DNA of 64,000 nucleotides, from contig CBDDIJ010000003.1 in the NCBI GenBank assembly GCA_965228855.1, positions 480,001 to 544,000 on the forward strand. The letters run 5' to 3'. This document shows positions 26,756-35,404 of the stretch, piece by piece; position 1 is the stretch's first letter, and every line of letters begins with the position of its first letter. The notes beneath the pieces are model-generated. The model did not search any database, was not told the DNA's origin, and was given only the letters and a program-made list of their open reading frames with translations. Source of the stretch: Candidatus Obscuribacterales bacterium. Its GTDB lineage: Bacteria; Cyanobacteriota; Vampirovibrionia; Obscuribacterales; Obscuribacteraceae. The position numbers were made by a program, and so were the translations under genes.

Positions 26756-27172
26756 ATGCGAATCTTTCTCGGCTTGTGCTGGGCTCTATTGCTGACCCTG
26801 TCGGCACCGATAGGTTCAATTGCGGCGGATTCCCCATCGCCGAAAGCGAGTGATAAAGTGCTTGTGGTAATGGTTTACGACGGCGGGTGTCACATCTGGT
26901 GTGATGAAGTACGACCAATTATCAGTGGTGTGACGAAGGCGTACGGCGACAAAGTCGAACTTCACGAGATCGATGTGCAGAAATCAGTGCTGAAGGAGTC
27001 GCTCGGAAAGGCTAACGAATTGGGCGTAAAGTCTTTTGTTGAGGGCGCCCTGGCATGGGTTCCGACTGTTGGTGTTTTCGACCAGAAACGCAAGCTTGTG
27101 AAGTCGATCCCCGGCGTCAGCAAGAAAGACACCTACAAAAGAATGATTGATAAGGCCTTGAAGCAGGGTTAG
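26756..27172 (+). CDS. Exported thioredoxin-fold protein with CxxxC motif
   Basis: Signal peptide, VMVYDGGCHIWCDEVRP and cis-Pro-like WVPT. Confidence 0.75.
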   Translation: MRIFLGLCWALLLTLSAPIGSIAADSPSPKASDKVLVVMVYDGGCHIWCDEVRPIISGVTKAYGDKVELHEIDVQKSVLKESLGKANELGVKSFVEGALAWVPTVGVFDQKRKLVKSIPGVSKKDTYKRMIDKALKQG

Positions 27173-27193
27173 TAACAGTCTCGTGAGAGAACA

Positions 27194-29134
27194 ATGGTCC
27201 GTGTAAATCCAAATCTTTTGAAGGGTTTCAGCTGGGTCGCTATCGGTCTGGTTTGTCTCACCATCGCACTATCCGGTCTTGTCTTATTCGGATGGGCAAC
27301 CAACACTGCGCTGTTGATGGACTTGTGGCCGGATATCTCGGAAAACCAGGTTGGGCGTGTCCTGTCTGCTGCGGCGGTGACGCTGATCGGATACGGCATC
27401 GCTACTCTGACTTTCATCTTCGGCAAGACTAATAAATTTGCCATCGCCGTGGGTGAGTTTATCAATGCTTTGATGCTTACCGGCGTTGGTATTGCGATTT
27501 ACTTTATCTGTACGCAGGATGTTTTCGAAAATGAGCTCGTTCTTTTCCCTGGCCCGGACGGTGCTGCTCAGGGAGCCACCTATCCGACTCCTCTATCCTA
27601 TGAAGTGGCTGGTTTGCTTCTTCTTGTTGGTCTTACGGTTGCTGCGATACCATTTGGAAAACCAAAGAAGTATCCGCTGTTCCAAATACTTGCGATAGTC
27701 TCGCTTGTGGTTCCCTTTCTGATAATCCTTTCTGCGTCGACTAATATCGCGCAACTTTGTGCGGCAACCGGGTGCATAAAGCTATCACCGGGATTCGCAT
27801 TGTTGTGCGTTACCATGCTTGTCGGAATATTCTTTTCGCGTCCTGAGCTGGGCATCGCGGCATTATTCTCGCGCTCATCTCCAGCTTATGCGTTGATGAG
27901 ACGTGTGACTGTTTTTCTCTGTATTGTGCCACCACTCATGATGGCACGCTCAATGATTACGCGTCCACCGCTCGAGGTCGAGACTGGTTTTTCCTGGGCG
28001 TTATTCGTTCTCTTCCTTCTCGTTGCGCTCGGTGCTGTCATCGCATCTGGTGTCAACATATTTAACCGAGTTGAAACCGAACTTACCGGTCAACTCGCAA
28101 ATATGAGAGACGAGTTGGAGAGAACTTCCGGAACTAGCGGTTCGGGCACGATCGATATGGCCGGTTCCATCAACTATAAGGTTCGCTATAAACGCATTTG
28201 TCTTACTTGCACGGCTGAGTACGGTGACGACATTGAACTCTGTCCAAACGATTCGTCGAAGTTGAGCCGCGTCATGAACGAGTCGATGATCGGAACTGTT
28301 TTCCTCGATAAGTATGAAATCACGGAGCGGCTCGGTGCAGGTGGCATGAGTACTGTGTATAAAGCCAAGCACAAATACATGGATAAGTATTTCGCGATCA
28401 AGGTGTTGAAAGGAAATACTGCCGAATCGCGTGATGGGCTGAAACGGTTTCAGCGCGAAGCGCGTGCAACAGGCTCGATTTCGCACTCAGGTATTGTCGG
28501 GGCGGCGGATTTTGGATTGACGCAGGACGGTCGAGCTTATCTGGTAATGGACTATTTGGAAGGCGAGAGTTTATCTCACTTCCTGGACCGCACCGGTAGT
28601 ATGAGTGTAAGTGACGTGATTGGTTTGACCGAGCAACTTTGCGATGCCCTGCGAGTCGCTCACGATAACGGCATTGTTCATCGCGATCTCAAACCGAGTA
28701 ACATCATGCTTGTTAGTGGCGAGAACGGGCAGATCGTCGCGAAGATTGTCGACTTCGGGCTTGCCAAAATTCTCGAGGATGACGAGTCTCCCGAGCTGAA
28801 GATTACCCAGACAGGCGAATGCTTCGGAAGTCCGCTCTACATGAGTCCGGAACAATGCATGGGCAAGAGGGTAGATTTTCGCTCCGACATTTATTCGCTG
28901 GGCTGCATCATGTTCGAGTGTCTAACTGGAAATCCTCCTATAATTGGTGCGAATGCTGCAGACACCATTGCTAAGCACGTCAAGGAGCGTCCCGCGGCTT
29001 TTCCTGACGCTTTGCAGATACCGAATGAAATCAAGCTCGTTGTCTACAAAGCGCTGCATAAGGAGCCGGTGTGGCGACCTCAATCAGTGACTGAGATCAA
29101 GGATTCTTTATCCGGCTCTTTGAGACAGCTTTAG
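27194..29134 (+). CDS. Polytopic membrane Ser/Thr protein kinase
   Basis: About 8 N-terminal TM helices, CLTC..CPND linker, LGAGGMSTVY, AIKVL, RFQREA, HRDLKPSNI, DFGLAK and GSPLYMSPEQ. Confidence 0.93.
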   Translation: MVRVNPNLLKGFSWVAIGLVCLTIALSGLVLFGWATNTALLMDLWPDISENQVGRVLSAAAVTLIGYGIATLTFIFGKTNKFAIAVGEFINALMLTGVGIAIYFICTQDVFENELVLFPGPDGAAQGATYPTPLSYEVAGLLLLVGLTVAAIPFGKPKKYPLFQILAIVSLVVPFLIILSASTNIAQLCAATGCIKLSPGFALLCVTMLVGIFFSRPELGIAALFSRSSPAYALMRRVTVFLCIVPPLMMARSMITRPPLEVETGFSWALFVLFLLVALGAVIASGVNIFNRVETELTGQLANMRDELERTSGTSGSGTIDMAGSINYKVRYKRICLTCTAEYGDDIELCPNDSSKLSRVMNESMIGTVFLDKYEITERLGAGGMSTVYKAKHKYMDKYFAIKVLKGNTAESRDGLKRFQREARATGSISHSGIVGAADFGLTQDGRAYLVMDYLEGESLSHFLDRTGSMSVSDVIGLTEQLCDALRVAHDNGIVHRDLKPSNIMLVSGENGQIVAKIVDFGLAKILEDDESPELKITQTGECFGSPLYMSPEQCMGKRVDFRSDIYSLGCIMFECLTGNPPIIGANAADTIAKHVKERPAAFPDALQIPNEIKLVVYKALHKEPVWRPQSVTEIKDSLSGSLRQL

Positions 29135-29243: not shown

Positions 29244-30710
29244 TCAATGGCTTCGGGGAATTTTGAACCAGAAAGTGCTTCCTTCGTTCAAAACTGATGT
29301 TACGCCGATTTCACCACCATGTTGTTCGACAATAGTTTTTGAAATTGGGAGTCCTAAGCCGGTACCACCTTTAGATGTCTGGTCGCTGCTCTCGACCTGT
29401 TGAAACGGTTCGAATATTTGCTCCAGTTTGTCTTGTGGAACACCCCGTCCTCTATCCGTGACGCGAAATTCGTAGTCTTCGTCATACTTAAGAACTTGAA
29501 CGGTGATCAATCCTTCCTTGGGCGAAAACTTAATGGCATTCGACAAGAAGTTGATGAGCACTTGAACCAAGCGGTCTTTGTCTGCTATGAATTGACCGCC
29601 GACGTCGTTAATCTCTAGTTTGACGCTATGACGATCAGCCATGTCTTTGACGCTTCCTATGGCGGCTTCAATGACTTCGCTGCTCGTTGTTTCTTTCAAA
29701 TCTAAGTCGAATCGAGCGCCTTCCATGGTTTCAATGCTGAGCAGGTCATCGATCAGACGCATTACCCGGTCTGTGTCGCGTGCGGCTAAAAGAATGCGAT
29801 TCTCCGCTTTCTCACTGAGATCGCCGAGCACTCCCTGCGAAAGATTATGCAAAGTGTACTGCACCGTACGTAGTGGCTCGCTGAGTTCATCCTTGACGAG
29901 GGATACGAGGTGTTTACGTTGCTTATCCACCTGTATCAGGTCCTGAGCCGCGGCGTGAAAAACTTCGTCGATATGAGCTAGTTCGTCATCTCCGCGAATC
30001 CGTGCCGCCAGCGGTTCTCTTCTTACGAGCCGACGGGTATTTTCCGAGAGTATTGCGATTGGTGTTGTGATTGTCCATGCAAAGATAACTGCTAGCACCA
30101 CTGTCAGTATCACATGCGCGCCCACTCCGTAAATTATAAATTGGCGAATATACTCGCGGTAAAGCTTTTCTTTAGCTTGAACTTTGGTTTGTGTATCTTG
30201 CTCCATTGTAAGAAGCTTATCGATGACTTTGAACGAACCTGTCATTCGAGAATACACGCGGTCCGATTTTTTTGTGGTGCCGGCGACCTTTTGAAGATCT
30301 GCATCCGGTTCGAACTCGCCTGTAAAAATAGTCCGCAATCTGTTCAGCGTTGTAGTTACAGTGGACTCTACTTCAAGGCTCAAGCTCCTGCGAGGCTCGG
30401 TTCTTTCGCAAAGACGTTTCAACTCTATGAGTTGGTTGCTGATGAAGTGAGCATCCTCATCGAAGCGAACGTCGAGCATCGGAATCTTCATTGCGTTGTA
30501 CAACATAGAAAGAAACTGGCAGTCGATTACTCTAGTACCGATGGTAGTTGCCACTGCGACAATTTTCTTAGATTCGATCCGGCGCTGAATATCACCTTCT
30601 GCAACAACCAGCAGGTAAACGAGGACGCTCATGAAAATCACTTCGAAGACTAGAGGTACTATCACGAGAAACAATCCCTTCTGGGCAATTTTTGATTTGA
30701 CCTTAATCAT
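29244..30710 (-). CDS. Membrane sensor histidine-kinase-like protein: intact HATPase, no phospho-acceptor His
   Basis: 2 TM + HAMP. DHp reads VKDELSEPL (His replaced by Asp). N box NFLSNAIKF, G1 DRGRG, F box IFEPF and G2 GGTGLGL are all intact. Confidence 0.9.
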   Translation of the reverse strand: MIKVKSKIAQKGLFLVIVPLVFEVIFMSVLVYLLVVAEGDIQRRIESKKIVAVATTIGTRVIDCQFLSMLYNAMKIPMLDVRFDEDAHFISNQLIELKRLCERTEPRRSLSLEVESTVTTTLNRLRTIFTGEFEPDADLQKVAGTTKKSDRVYSRMTGSFKVIDKLLTMEQDTQTKVQAKEKLYREYIRQFIIYGVGAHVILTVVLAVIFAWTITTPIAILSENTRRLVRREPLAARIRGDDELAHIDEVFHAAAQDLIQVDKQRKHLVSLVKDELSEPLRTVQYTLHNLSQGVLGDLSEKAENRILLAARDTDRVMRLIDDLLSIETMEGARFDLDLKETTSSEVIEAAIGSVKDMADRHSVKLEINDVGGQFIADKDRLVQVLINFLSNAIKFSPKEGLITVQVLKYDEDYEFRVTDRGRGVPQDKLEQIFEPFQQVESSDQTSKGGTGLGLPISKTIVEQHGGEIGVTSVLNEGSTFWFKIPRSH

Positions 30711-32175
30711 CTTGCTTTCCTCTCGGAGGAAGCTTCAACGCGAAATGACTTGTCTGAGAGTCAGACACCGCTGTCAGTGAACCACCATGAGCTTGTGCGA
30801 TTGCCGCTGCCAGGGCGAGAAATAATATTCTCCCTTTGACCTCGTTCTCTTCCGTTTCTCGGGTCCTGTCGAAATAATTCGCTGCTTGTACCGGAGACAG
30901 TGGCGGACCATTGTCCAGAAACCGGATGTCTACGAATCCTGCACTGTCGATAGTACCGGTAATTGTCAAACTTCCTTCGGAGGGAATTCTGAGTAAGCAG
31001 GTCTCAATCAGGATCTCAGTGGTTTCTTTTAGTTTGTCCCAATCTCCAACCAGAGGCAGTTCTTCAAACTGACAGTCCACCGATATCTGTTTCTCTTCGA
31101 TGAATTGCTCATGGGCATCAAGTGCGTCAACGATTATGTGTCCGATGTCCAGCTCCGCTTGTTTAAGAATCTGGCTTCCTGCTTCCAGGCGCTCCAGCAA
31201 GAGCAAATTGTTTATGAGTTTAATCAGGCGATCGACGCTCTGCTGCGCCCTTACTATCTCAGGGGTGGCTCGCTCGGAAAACTGTCCCATCGCTCCTGCC
31301 TCGAGCAAGGTCAGAGTGCCCTGGACGGAGGTCAATGGTGTTCTCAGCTCGTGACTGACTACAGCAACTAATTGTTGTTTGAACTTCTCGAATTCGAGAA
31401 TTTCATTTGCGGTTTCGTGCAGAGCGTGGTCCAGATCCGCGATCTCATCGGTTCCGCGAAGAGGAGGGTCAAGAGGCAATCGAGCGCCGAATTTGAATGT
31501 GTTGTTCAACACGTTTTCCATTCGTGCCGTGATCCCGCGCATCACGAAGGTCGCAAGAAATACGGTGATGGCAATGTTCGCGATGAAGCCGAAGAGAAAG
31601 AAAATTTGCAACTGCACAAGGGTTTGCTGTCGCAGTTTTGGTTGAATCGTCAGAATCTTCTGCTCCTTCTCAAGAATCACAGATGCTGCGGTTTCTGGTC
31701 GCTGTTGATTCGCTGAAGTGAGGCTGGCTAAATTGAAGAATGAGCTGACTCTCGCTTGAGGGGCGCTGTTGAGGGCGCGGTCTTGCTGGCGCATCCACTC
31801 GTCGGCGGCGTTGCGAAGCCGGCTGGCAGACTCAAGTTCGGCAGGATCTTTGGCGCACAGCTTTACTAGTTTGGAATATGCTCGCAACAATTTTGCGCGT
31901 GACTTTTCGTTGCGCTCCTTCATTTCGTTGCGACGCGTGATGTTGTAGAGAATCGCTGACGTCATCGAGTCTGAAATCTCTTTGACCATTGTCTCAACGG
32001 CGACGATCTTATCTTGCGAGGCAATTTCGCGAGCGATGTGCTGACCTGATTCGTCTAGCAGGTGAATTAGAACGGCGACAAAAAAGAGCTCGAACACCAG
32101 CGGTATCGAGATTATTAGCAGACCCTTTTGCAGGATGCTCTGTCTGCCGCTTTTATTGTCGCCTCTATAAGTCAT
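30703..32175 (-). CDS. Membrane sensor histidine-kinase-like protein: intact H-box, degenerate HATPase
   Basis: 2 TM + HAMP; H-box VSHELRTPLT. The N box is replaced by EILIETCLLRI, G1 reads DNGPP and G2 is replaced by GRILFL. Confidence 0.9.
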   Translation of the reverse strand: MTYRGDNKSGRQSILQKGLLIISIPLVFELFFVAVLIHLLDESGQHIAREIASQDKIVAVETMVKEISDSMTSAILYNITRRNEMKERNEKSRAKLLRAYSKLVKLCAKDPAELESASRLRNAADEWMRQQDRALNSAPQARVSSFFNLASLTSANQQRPETAASVILEKEQKILTIQPKLRQQTLVQLQIFFLFGFIANIAITVFLATFVMRGITARMENVLNNTFKFGARLPLDPPLRGTDEIADLDHALHETANEILEFEKFKQQLVAVVSHELRTPLTSVQGTLTLLEAGAMGQFSERATPEIVRAQQSVDRLIKLINNLLLLERLEAGSQILKQAELDIGHIIVDALDAHEQFIEEKQISVDCQFEELPLVGDWDKLKETTEILIETCLLRIPSEGSLTITGTIDSAGFVDIRFLDNGPPLSPVQAANYFDRTRETEENEVKGRILFLALAAAIAQAHGGSLTAVSDSQTSHFALKLPPRGKQDD

Positions 32176-32347: not shown

Positions 32348-35300
32348 CTATCTGCGACTGCCTGGTTTAGGCGGTACGTTTTGACCTTGTGGTCCCTGCG
32401 GACCGGGTTGGGGACCAGGTGTTTGCGTCTGCGACAATTCCGGGAACCAGGCATTGAGTTTGGCGCTGTCAAAGCCAGTGCTTGCCAGCTTTGCCATAAT
32501 GGACGGCTCCTTACAGAGTGCCGGACGTAACTCCAGACCCTTGTGAATATCGGCGATTCCCGCTTCCGGATTTTGTTGATTTGCTGCCATCTTTCTTACG
32601 CCCATGGAGACGTAGAGTAGTCCATCCGCTTGACCGATTTTCGAATAGTTAGCTGCATCCTGATTAATCTGAGTTAGCTCTGCTTGAGCTTCTGGTGTAA
32701 GCTGACCACCATTTGCATTTGTTGTGGATACGATGACCTGGCGTCTGGTTTCCAGAGAGGACAGTGCCGTTTGCACATCGACCGGATTTACTTTGCTGGC
32801 GGACTCGATTGCTTTGGCATAAGCATCCATTACTTGCTGTTCTGTTGGCTGTTCCGGAAGGTCCGCGAACGGCTGCAAGTTTTTAGCATGCTGCTCGCGC
32901 AGACGCTCGAATGCCTGCTGAACCTCTTGCGTCACGGAAACTTCCTGAGGCTTATCGCCCTGGAGCGGCAGTTCCGGGAACCATGCCTTCAGCTGACCAT
33001 CCGCTACTCCAGTGCTCTTCAATTTCGAGAGCACCGCCTGATCGTTTGCCAGTTCCGGCCGCATGGTCAGACCTGCCTTGATGTCAGCTTTTCCTGCTTC
33101 AGGGCTGTCCGGCGTCATCTTCAGTCTGACTGCGCCACGTGAAATATTCAAGTAGGCTTCTGACTGATCGATGCGTTTGACCATCTTCAGGTTCGACTCT
33201 ACTTTAGCCAATTCCGTTTTGGTGGCATCATCCGGCTCACCGCCCGTGATACTGCCAATGATAGCTTGCTTTTTCGCTTCCAGAAGCTGGTTGGCTCTTG
33301 CGATATCTTCAGGACTTACCTGTTTGGCGTTTTCGATCGCCGAGCTAAACGCTGCTTCGATCGCGGTGGCGTCGGATGATTCGTTGAGTGATTTCAACGG
33401 CTCCAGGATCTTGCGATGGTTCTCTGTCAGTCTTTCGAATGTCGCTTGATCGGCTTGCGCCTGGCTATCTTCCGGCTTCGCTTCCGGTTTGACCTCCGGT
33501 CTTACTTCCGGTTGCGGTGTAACCTCCGGCTTAACCTCAGTCTGCGGTCCCTCGGGTTTCGATTCCGGTTTGACCTCGGCTTGTGGGACCTGAGGCTTCG
33601 TTTCCGGTTGCACCGTATGTGGTGTCTCCGTTGAGGCAGCAGGTTTCGCCAACTGTTTCTTAGGTTCGGTCAAATTTTCATTGAGGAAACCGTTTAACTT
33701 CTCCGCGCCGCGTTCTTCGGCTGTGTGCGGCTCAAGTTTCCCGACTACGCGACCCTTAATTTTTCCGGATTCGTCTTTGTAAGGTTCCACAACGACAACG
33801 GTCGGCCAGGAGTTTGCTTGCAGTTCATCTACAAGGTCCATGCGCTGTTCGCCGTTGATATCGGTGAAAACCGCTTTGTCTTTCAAGCTTTTTTGAATGC
33901 GATCGTCCGGCCATGCCTTCGCTGTCATATCTATACAGCCTGTGCAATCCGGTGACCCAACTTTTCCTACCAGTCGCCGGCCAGATTTAAACGCGTCCTC
34001 GAGAGCCTTCTCGTACTCAGATCCATCGTATTTCAACTTCTCCGGCTGCACGACCGTCATTTCCGGTTTTGCTTCCGGTGGTGTCGCTGGTGGTGTCGTC
34101 TCCGTTTTACTTTCCGGCGTGGTTTCCGGGTTGTTTTCCGGCTTGACCTCCGGCTTAACTTCCGGCGGTTTGTTCGCGGCGACAAACTGGTCGATGGTTC
34201 CGTCTTTCTTCGCTTTGAGGTAGTCGTCGAATTTGACTTCCGGCAGTTTCTCTTTTAACTGATCGAGCTCATAAGGTGTGCGCATCAGCTGTTCAATGAA
34301 TTGCGGGCTGTTCAGATAAGCCGGATTGTCTTTGGCGCCTTCTTTGATTTTGGCAACTCCCTGGTCGAGTTGCGAGAAGTGCATCTGACTAATGCCGTGG
34401 TTCATCTTCGTCCACGCTGGAGCGTTCGCCATCAGATCGAGTACGCTCTGGCGAGCTTTGAGAGTATCGACCTTTTGCTGGTCGGCGCCTGCACCTTTGG
34501 CGACTTCTGTTTCTAACTCACGAGAAGTTTTTTGCTTAACCAGAGCAACGTCTTTAGGATCGAGCTTGGCGGCTGCGTCTTCGGCCTGGGCATACAAACC
34601 TTCACGCTGAGAGTAGGTCGAGCCTTTTAATTGTTTGAACGAATCTATGATTGTTTTCGCGTGCGGTGCGACCCTTGCTTCGGCCTCTGATTCTTGTAAA
34701 CGAAGCCGTTCTTGTTCGTTTGCTTCCGGTTTCACCGTAGCATCGGAACCGGGTGGAGGAGCATCGGGGGTGATACCACGACTGCCATCCGGTTTTGTAT
34801 CTTGGGCGGCATCCGGTACGTTGTACGAACCCTTGCGCGAGTCCATTGTTGTTTGCGCATGACCAAGCTGCTGCTGGATGATCGTGCCAATCTCCGCGCG
34901 CGAGCCCCAGGTATTTGCAATATGATTTTCGAGTTGAGGTCTGCCATCCGCCCCGGCTTTCGGTGCAAAGATAGCTGTGTACGGGTGATTTGCGTCACCC
35001 CGACTTGCTGCGACTTCTCTTCCTAATTCTGAATTTGGGTCCAATTGTGACATCTCTGCGTAGACATAGACGGCTTTTTGAGCTCCGCCTTTGGCACCAG
35101 GGATAACACCATCGACGAGCTGCTTTGTTTCAGCACTGTTTTTGTTGCCCACGACAACAACAAGTGGAACGCCATCGCGGGCGGCCTTCGCTTTAGCCGC
35201 TTCCATGTCTCCACTGGTGAAGTCGAAGTTCTTCTTGATCGAGTCGTTATACGCCGCGTCAGAAGTCCAACCGACACCTTTGGCTCGGTCTCCGTCAATG

Positions 35301-35404
35301 ATCGTGAAGCCATCACTCATTCCCGGCTTTTTGCTGGGATCGTAGATTTTATTGGCTTCTTTTAAGATCGATAACGGATCTGGATTTAATACTCTGGGAT
35401 TCAC
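32348..35404 (-). CDS. Large repetitive protein with two thioredoxin-like domains and three helical repeats; the frame extends to ATG 35533 through a UGA
   Basis: GSPDCTGC..WPTV thioredoxin domain, a Cys-less Trx-like N-terminal domain, P/E/V/K-rich linkers and three ~130-aa repeats. Confidence 0.8.
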   Translation of the reverse strand: MNPRVLNPDPLSILKEANKIYDPSKKPGMSDGFTIIDGDRAKGVGWTSDAAYNDSIKKNFDFTSGDMEAAKAKAARDGVPLVVVVGNKNSAETKQLVDGVIPGAKGGAQKAVYVYAEMSQLDPNSELGREVAASRGDANHPYTAIFAPKAGADGRPQLENHIANTWGSRAEIGTIIQQQLGHAQTTMDSRKGSYNVPDAAQDTKPDGSRGITPDAPPPGSDATVKPEANEQERLRLQESEAEARVAPHAKTIIDSFKQLKGSTYSQREGLYAQAEDAAAKLDPKDVALVKQKTSRELETEVAKGAGADQQKVDTLKARQSVLDLMANAPAWTKMNHGISQMHFSQLDQGVAKIKEGAKDNPAYLNSPQFIEQLMRTPYELDQLKEKLPEVKFDDYLKAKKDGTIDQFVAANKPPEVKPEVKPENNPETTPESKTETTPPATPPEAKPEMTVVQPEKLKYDGSEYEKALEDAFKSGRRLVGKVGSPDCTGCIDMTAKAWPDDRIQKSLKDKAVFTDINGEQRMDLVDELQANSWPTVVVVEPYKDESGKIKGRVVGKLEPHTAEERGAEKLNGFLNENLTEPKKQLAKPAASTETPHTVQPETKPQVPQAEVKPESKPEGPQTEVKPEVTPQPEVRPEVKPEAKPEDSQAQADQATFERLTENHRKILEPLKSLNESSDATAIEAAFSSAIENAKQVSPEDIARANQLLEAKKQAIIGSITGGEPDDATKTELAKVESNLKMVKRIDQSEAYLNISRGAVRLKMTPDSPEAGKADIKAGLTMRPELANDQAVLSKLKSTGVADGQLKAWFPELPLQGDKPQEVSVTQEVQQAFERLREQHAKNLQPFADLPEQPTEQQVMDAYAKAIESASKVNPVDVQTALSSLETRRQVIVSTTNANGGQLTPEAQAELTQINQDAANYSKIGQADGLLYVSMGVRKMAANQQNPEAGIADIHKGLELRPALCKEPSIMAKLASTGFDSAKLNAWFPELSQTQTPGPQPGPQGPQGQNVPPKPGSRR

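Follow-up and report, generated by a model that had tools for sequence, protein, structure and literature searches.

Can two sensor kinase genes, neither of which encodes a complete kinase, make one working kinase between them? The question is raised by two adjacent genes, here called A and B, in a 64,000-nucleotide stretch from a Candidatus Obscuribacterales bacterium (contig CBDDIJ010000003.1, positions 480,001 to 544,000). We refer to this whole stretch as the window, and coordinates are counted from its first letter. A has an intact dimerization and histidine phosphotransfer (DHp) domain and a degenerate catalytic and ATP-binding (CA) domain, while B has a DHp domain without the histidine and an intact CA domain. 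The analyses described here make it likely that A and B form an obligate heterodimer, in which the ATP-binding domain of B would phosphorylate His275 of A before an OmpR-type regulator, encoded elsewhere, receives the phosphate. The two genes and their parts are as follows.

30703..32175, minus strand: gene A (P0001, 490 residues), with two transmembrane (TM) segments, a CHASE3-like periplasmic domain, HAMP, an intact DHp and a degenerate CA; the predicted phospho-acceptor subunit
29244..30710, minus strand: gene B (P0002, 488 residues), with two TM segments, a periplasmic domain, HAMP, a His-less DHp and an intact CA; the predicted catalytic subunit
30703..30710, minus strand: stop/start overlap of A and B, 8 nt
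30718-30724, minus strand: purine-rich stretch resembling a ribosome-binding site, near the overlap
31351..31353, minus strand: codon (CAC) for His275 of A, in the H-box
29889..29891, minus strand: codon (GAT) for Asp274 of B, at the His position
31177..31380, minus strand: DHp of A (residues 266-333); orthologues are on average 71% identical here
30721..31158, minus strand: dead CA of A (residues 340-485), N-box Asn and G1/G2 glycines lost, 38% mean identity
29721..29924, minus strand: His-less DHp of B (residues 263-330), with 33 invariant columns out of 68 and a mean identity of 76%
29253..29702, minus strand: intact CA of B (residues 337-486), in which 12/12 orthologues retain the residues of the N, G1, F and G2 boxes

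A reading of the window made from its letters alone (the sequence-only reading) had described A and B as tandem paralogues with an 8-bp overlap and a shared kinase layout, and the open reading frames, the overlap and the TM segments all bear this out. There are two hydrophobic segments per chain (residues 14-42 and 185-215 in A, 8-42 and 190-222 in B), and the chains are approximately 26% identical. The overlap, together with the ribosome-site-like stretch, suggests that translation of the two genes is coupled. The motif states had also been read correctly: the H-box of A is kept and its ATP boxes are decayed, in agreement with the Pfam scores and the position of the His codon, and B has intact ATP boxes and a GAT codon for Asp at the His position. 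In Pfam, A matches HisKA with E 4e-17 (above the cut-off) and HATPase_c with E 8e-5 (below the cut-off), with a weak match to CHASE3; B matches HATPase_c with E 1.5e-31 and HisKA with E 5e-4 (below the cut-off). DHp and CA domains are thus detectable in both proteins, with one per chain falling under the cut-off. The HAMP domains were assigned by motif and alignments, as Pfam HAMP gave no match for either protein. Neither A nor B, in any orthologue, combines the His with intact N, G1, F and G2 boxes in one chain, as a canonical homodimeric HisKA kinase does. A promoter scan did no better than chance, and the sites listed included nothing terminator-like on the minus strand. The window was also said to encode no response regulator, and the search for receiver domains agrees: none was found within the 64 kb (150 of 200 candidates scored, plus a custom profile), the nearest being 55 kb off.

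The reciprocal losses are conserved. A first search, covering 41 genomes, found 11 orthologous loci including that of the window, at 41-100% identity, and no match at E 1e-40 in 16 genomes of other families. At all 11 loci A precedes B, the H-box of A is intact and its CA dead, and B lacks the His; at one of them (G006) B is cut by the contig end, with the H-box still visible. A second search, of all 104 family genomes with B as the query, matched 13 genomes at E 1e-105 and added three that carry the same reciprocal pair (G060, G075 and the more distant G058, whose proteins are 34% and 39% identical to those of the window). The total is 14 genomes in five genera, apparently of Candidatus Obscuribacterales, with the gene order and both losses present in 14 of 14; a search of related genomes for adjacent pairs with the same losses had been proposed as a check, and this is its outcome. 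The residue at the His position of B is D, E, N or Y, and never H, in all 14 genomes, and the Asp codon is therefore not a sequencing error, as the sequence-only reading had argued. Contigs from two sequencing runs agree with the stretch at every letter, though they may be its source; no RNA data set carrying it was listed.

Both genes are under purifying selection, which was the second check proposed. In the five of seven genome pairs with unsaturated synonymous divergence, the whole-gene ratio of nonsynonymous to synonymous substitution rates (dN/dS) lies between 0.06 and 0.25 in A and between 0.045 and 0.13 in B. The domains of A have mean identities of 58% (sensor), 77% (HAMP), 71% (DHp) and 38% (dead CA), and those of B 48% (sensor), 66% (HAMP), 76% (His-less DHp) and 63% (CA). 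The best-conserved domain of B is therefore the DHp that has lost its histidine. The dead CA is the least conserved domain of A, with a ratio of nonsynonymous to synonymous differences (pN/pS) of 0.20-0.35, and is relaxed yet not neutral. The sensor domains of A and B are both constrained (pN/pS 0.03-0.16), a pattern that would fit two inputs or one composite site equally well.

The arrangement is not confined to this locus. Among 106 kinase-core matches in the source genome (G000), there are eight genes that are His-bearing and ATP-dead, and the pairing is not chance, because all eight overlap a His-less, ATP-intact gene. When the labels were shuffled over the 41 family genes, 200,000 rounds never gave more than five such pairs compared with the eight observed, although this test overstates the case, four of the eight pairs having been co-duplicated. 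The pairs vary in sensor architecture, with no PAS, one PAS or two PAS domains, and in gene order, the A type being first in two and the B type in six. An OmpR regulator lies in an operon-like run with two of the eight, and upstream of a third pair there is one at a distance of 731 nt. Sister pairs have also been kept in other genera. An example is the family of C5:787192-791749, a pair with a linked regulator: all 12 loci of this family are conserved, and its closest relatives are intact kinases encoded by single genes that adjoin a regulator gene. Across the fetched loci, which comprise 288 distinct modules, 42 of 43 His-bearing, ATP-dead modules stand next to a His-less module or are fused with one; the remaining module ends 11 nt from a contig end. 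Conversely, 42 of 45 His-less, ATP-intact modules are partnered; one more is partnered on a longer stretch, and the other two are at contig ends. None of the 172 intact modules adjoins either half-dead class.

Two further overlapping kinase pairs in the source genome have both genes intact (C2:2414976-2418676 and C3:2881627-2885222; L038 and L039). Their first genes and their second genes fall in separate clades, so that they were duplicated as a pair, and they may be heterodimers before degeneration. We also observed an intermediate pair in G055 (L253:1288-5007), in which a His-less, ATP-intact gene is followed by a His-bearing gene with a partly decayed G2 box, and a tandem of two reciprocal pairs in G058 (L237:2566-8443), with four genes in the order A-B-A-B. 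In the source genome there are also two kinase-like genes that are His-less and stand alone, without a partner next to them (C2:1273485-1275920, L046, and C5:110976-112541, L045), of which one also has a dead CA and one has a GAF domain. C3:378835 was rejected as a kinase, and is a receiver protein.

The trees call for at least five independent origins of the reciprocal pairs. On a tree of the sensor and HAMP regions (111 rows), eight changes are needed for each half-dead class, and the starred branches of that tree force at least six changes for the B types and at least five for the A types. Tested against 24 intact rows, a single clade is rejected both for 14 B types (approximately unbiased (AU) test, p 1.8e-5) and, with the same intact rows, for 12 A types (p 3.6e-111).

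The same division of labour is also found within single chains. There is a family of proteins of about 1000 or 1250 residues (P0003-P0122; L251, L257-L264) that contain two complete TM-sensor-HAMP-(PAS)-DHp-CA modules, each with two TM segments; our literature search found no published description of this large two-module family. Reciprocal half-dead modules in one chain occur in three family genomes (L251, L259 and L264), and fusions with both modules intact at six loci. The search for long relatives gave 162 matches, and of the best 120, which were listed, 118 have two modules: 65 are intact, 48 are reciprocal and five have a single loss. In these 118 proteins all 48 double losses are reciprocal, and there is no case in which both losses fall in the same module or in which both His or both CA are lost. 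The His-less module comes first in 43 of the reciprocal fusions and the His-bearing module in five. The fusion tree requires four and five changes for the two polarities, of which its starred branches force four and four, and reciprocal fusions thus have at least eight origins across both polarities. If reciprocal and same-module loss were equally viable, eight out of eight origins would have p ~0.004 by our own arithmetic.

The modules of the L264 fusion are each sister to the matching module of a both-intact fusion, L263. In L264 itself (L264:1778-4327, in G042), which is one of the reciprocal fusions, the second sensor region and the greater part of the dead CA are shortened or deleted, a step towards a true split kinase. 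One fusion, P0048, was modelled from a 52-row alignment with a mean predicted local distance difference test (pLDDT) score of 79 and a predicted template modelling (pTM) score of 0.57. In the model the fold of the dead CA is kept, with a low-confidence ATP lid (residues 425-431 and 442-469). A fold search with it placed HK853 and WalK on top. Size covariation between the fused modules (40 dereplicated proteins) was dropped, the signal being dominated by kinship. In the lineage of the window itself there are suggestive large/small swaps at F262/V261, F265/Q264 and A251/V250.

How the active site is divided was examined by scoring residues, numbered from the H-box His, in 13 A-type and 12 B-type members of the window lineage and in 104 intact single kinases. 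The A members retain the acid at H+1 and the residues at H+3, H+4, H+7, H+50, H+53 and H+54 in 13/13 each; within the H-box these are the H+1 acid, H+3 Arg, H+4 Thr (a phosphatase-type ExxT) and H+7 Thr. By contrast with 13/13 in A, none of the 12 B members has R/K at H+3, Thr at H+7 or K/R at H+54, and the residues of B at H+3, H+7, H+11 and H+15 are unlike those of intact members as well as those of A. Every scored CA residue (N, G1, F and G2) is present in B, 12/12. In A, the G2 Leu is kept in 13/13 although the glycines are lost. The helix 2 residue H+41 Arg (Arg315 of B) shows the opposite distribution, being present in 12/12 B members and 102/104 intact singles versus 4/13 A members; in other lineages the counts for B versus A are 13/13 versus 0/13, 8/8 versus 0/6, and 35/35 versus 1/35. 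We infer that this Arg is likely to line the active site from the catalytic chain.

This division resembles that seen in CpxA, where H+50 and H+54 are taken by us, on a motif alignment, to correspond to Leu292 and Arg296. In the trans Michaelis complex of CpxA, the His-bearing chain provides His248, Glu249 and Arg251, and the CA of the opposite chain provides Asn356, Asn360 and the G boxes (PMC3904827). Phe403 of the active CA touches Leu292 and Arg296 of the opposite chain, while the second CA is sequestered via Phe403 and Leu419, and approximately one site per dimer reacts (PMC3904827). A and B share out the residues of one composite active site in the way that the two chains do in the trans complex of CpxA.

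The proposal of an obligate heterodimer, made in the sequence-only reading, is therefore supported at the level of sequence by the reciprocal losses and their conservation, purifying selection, the eight pairs in the source genome, at least five origins, natural fusions and the split, trans-type site. In the mechanism that we propose, coupled translation would yield both chains, which would pair along their periplasmic, TM, HAMP and DHp helices. A periplasmic signal would favour an asymmetric kinase state, with the CA of B mobile and catalytic and the dead CA of A fixed as the docked, inactive one. A would contribute His275, Glu276, Arg278 and the end of helix 2, and B the N, G1, F and G2 boxes and Arg315. 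The regulator would then dock on helix 1 of A, where the ExxT motif probably also confers phosphatase activity. The likely history is that an intact kinase underwent tandem duplication or fusion, the products formed a heterodimer, one His was lost, and the ATP site facing it decayed. A neutral ratchet could have frozen the alternating one-site asymmetry of ordinary dimers into the genes, which is possible because in ordinary kinase dimers the two sites do not work simultaneously; such a ratchet on half-of-sites activity would explain the loss pattern without the AND gate that the sequence-only reading had suggested as a possibility.

The source genome has 44 OmpR-type regulators. One orphan among them (C3:98654-99325; L276:5655-6326) is the best match for the regulators that stand beside the nearest intact relatives of the pair (L059 and L061). 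Its identity is 94-100% within the genus and 75% in G058; in G045, and in the 12 other genomes that carry close orthologues of A and B, it is at least 86%. In other genera it adjoins its own intact kinase, whose helix 1 resembles that of A. We regard its assignment to the A-B pair as tentative and somewhat doubtful, a lead and no more, because kinship alone could give its co-occurrence with the pair.

Several points weigh against the heterodimer, or against the counts on which it rests. The nearest solved relatives by both sequence and fold are WalK/YycG, VicK and HK853, of which VicK is cis-autophosphorylating and HK853 is presumably also a cis kinase. If the kinase of this family were cis, an A-B heterodimer would be dead. 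Cis or trans is decided by the handedness of the DHp loop (PMC6798134), and the loss pattern points to trans. No regulator is linked to the pair in any of 11 neighbourhoods. The pTM of the P0048 model does not establish that the two halves pack together. A tree of the CA domains alone does not reject a single origin of the B types (p 0.397), having too little signal; all the trees are quick LG+G4 or FastTree trees with no mixture model, and the rows for both single-clade tests were picked after the sensor and HAMP tree had been seen. The fusions were ranked by kinase core, with 42 of the 162 matches outside the listing, and a query with the sensor alone gave 23 proteins (20 intact, one reciprocal, two single-module and none with same-module loss), too few to put the rule of reciprocal loss to the test. 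Finally, the census of fetched loci is enriched, the pair members having served as queries, and the unbiased count is that in the source genome.

Four other explanations were weighed. The pair might work as two homodimers that never join into a stable A-B dimer, a B dimer transiently phosphorylating an A dimer much as CheA4 acts on CheA3. Such a system would show the same reciprocal losses of motifs, no particular loop handedness would be needed, and the CheA3/CheA4 precedent is biochemically shown (PMC3591291); but the fusions tether one A module to one B module, the relaxation of H+41 Arg in A and of H+54 in B is better accommodated by one shared four-helix bundle, and the domain most conserved in B is its His-less DHp. 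We consider this arrangement unlikely. There might alternatively be no autokinase at all: a different kinase would feed the regulator, A would serve that regulator as phosphatase or phosphate sink, and B would be an ATP-binding pseudokinase that tunes A. DivL and RetS act in this way (PMC12189002), A has the H-E-x-x-T motif in 13/13, the candidate regulator stands beside its own intact kinase in other genera, and a cis kinase is among the nearest solved relatives. Against this, B has kept all scored catalytic CA residues in 12/12, including the first N-box Asn, which in CpxA contacts the H+1 Glu of the partner (PMC3904827), and A retains the H+3 Arg that contacts the ATP gamma-phosphate in CpxA. 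Moreover, B has lost the regulator-docking residues, and where a pair and a regulator lie in one operon-like run, that run contains no intact kinase. We consider this explanation improbable too.

A third possibility is that B is a complete kinase using a shifted histidine, with A as an accessory subunit. His267 of B is kept in 11/12 orthologues and His288 in 12/12, the latter also in the distant G058 pair, and this conservation counts against the heterodimer. However, four helical turns separate His288 from the canonical site, there is no His within -11 to +19 in 25 of 33 other His-less pair members or in 34 of 48 fused His-less modules, and the perfect H-box of A would be left unexplained; such a kinase is very unlikely. 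As to sequencing error, or independent neutral decay of redundant duplicates, GAT is one base from CAT and the CA of A is its least conserved domain, but four different residues, none of them His, replace the histidine in the 14 genomes, dN/dS is far under 1, and the frames are open at full length at 34-97% identity. These results refute it. We regard the obligate heterodimer as the likely reading.

The arrangement is real, conserved and repeatedly evolved. On balance we lean towards the broader view that one bacterial order has repeatedly made obligate one-site pseudo-heterodimers with two different sensors, at least five times as pairs and at least eight times as fusions, with the whole path preserved, from single gene through both-intact tandem or fusion and single loss to reciprocal loss. 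Sensor kinases are taught as homodimers. Heterodimeric sensor kinases have been called rare (PMC12675982). If this view is right, these are natural kinases with locked asymmetry, acting as two-input or composite-site receptors, and the loss pattern is a genomic test for trans autophosphorylation. The series of one-site dimers would test directly whether half-of-sites activity suffices for signalling, which subunit's sensor controls the kinase, and how a homomer becomes an obligate heteromer without adaptive gain. In the fusions, structural studies and the design of two-input sensors would have asymmetric kinases ready to hand. Read singly, genes of this kind are labelled in annotation as ordinary kinases or set aside as pseudokinases.

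The neighbourhood of the pair is also partly conserved. Upstream of it, in most of the 11 neighbourhoods, is a gene for a 1018-residue protein with a thioredoxin-like domain and repeats (32348-35404, minus strand in the window). Convergent on the pair (26756-29134, plus strand) are a small thioredoxin-like gene and a membrane Ser/Thr kinase gene, conserved nearby in most relatives; in several of these, a 352-residue protein without a Pfam match joins them.

How, then, does the A-B pair compare with known systems? In our full-text literature search, which covered few subscription journals, we found no account from Obscuribacterales of kinase pairs with reciprocal degeneration or of fusions of two modules. 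The closest precedent is FasBC of group A Streptococcus, which like A-B has two adjacent membrane kinase genes, one giving the His and one the active CA (in A-B, as judged by sequence). In two-hybrid assays FasB and FasC form heterodimers and not homodimers; His246 of FasC is required and its kinase domain is dispensable, and the authors' model is that FasB phosphorylates FasC (PMC12675982). FasB has a His (H284) that they did not test, cis phosphorylation is not excluded by them, and the transmembrane part of FasB is dispensable (PMC12675982). The reciprocal loss seen in the sequences of A and B is not shown for FasBC, FasB keeping its His, whereas B has no H-box His. FasBC is furthermore one locus with a ComE-like regulator, whereas A-B belongs to a HisKA/CHASE3-like family with many origins and fusions and has no regulator in its locus (two of the eight sister pairs have one). 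HmrABCX (PMC11481889) was set aside as a comparison.

CheA3 and CheA4 of Rhodobacter sphaeroides likewise do not autophosphorylate alone, and their mixture labels the His-bearing one (PMC3591291). Unlike A-B, they are class II, soluble kinases that lack whole domains and make transient contact. In HK1/HK2 of M. tuberculosis the ATP and His domains are on separate partial proteins, while the A-B split lies across two full-length paralogues. That system (Rv0600c/Rv0601c, with TcrA) consists of two kinase genes and one regulator (PMC3544749, PMC9321153). Unlike the proteins of such split kinases, A and B each have the full length of a membrane receptor and a sensor of their own, and their dead domains are kept under selection. 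A DivL-type pseudokinase has its His replaced and keeps the regulator-docking face; in B, by contrast, the docking-face positions (H+3, H+7, H+11 and H+15) are changed. As in DivL-CckA and RetS-GacS, a kinase-like chain without one function pairs with another kinase, but the partners there are complete and the pairing regulates or inhibits (PMC12189002), whereas neither A nor B is complete. The CpxA homodimer has the same domain order, with one mobile and one sequestered CA (PMC3904827); its asymmetry is dynamic between identical chains, whereas that of A-B appears to be fixed in the genes. Other analogies may be provided by the pseudo-heterodimers of adenylyl and guanylyl cyclases and by ATP-binding cassette (ABC) transporters with a degenerate site. 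We conclude that A-B resembles FasBC and the split kinases in its predicted working, and belongs to neither.

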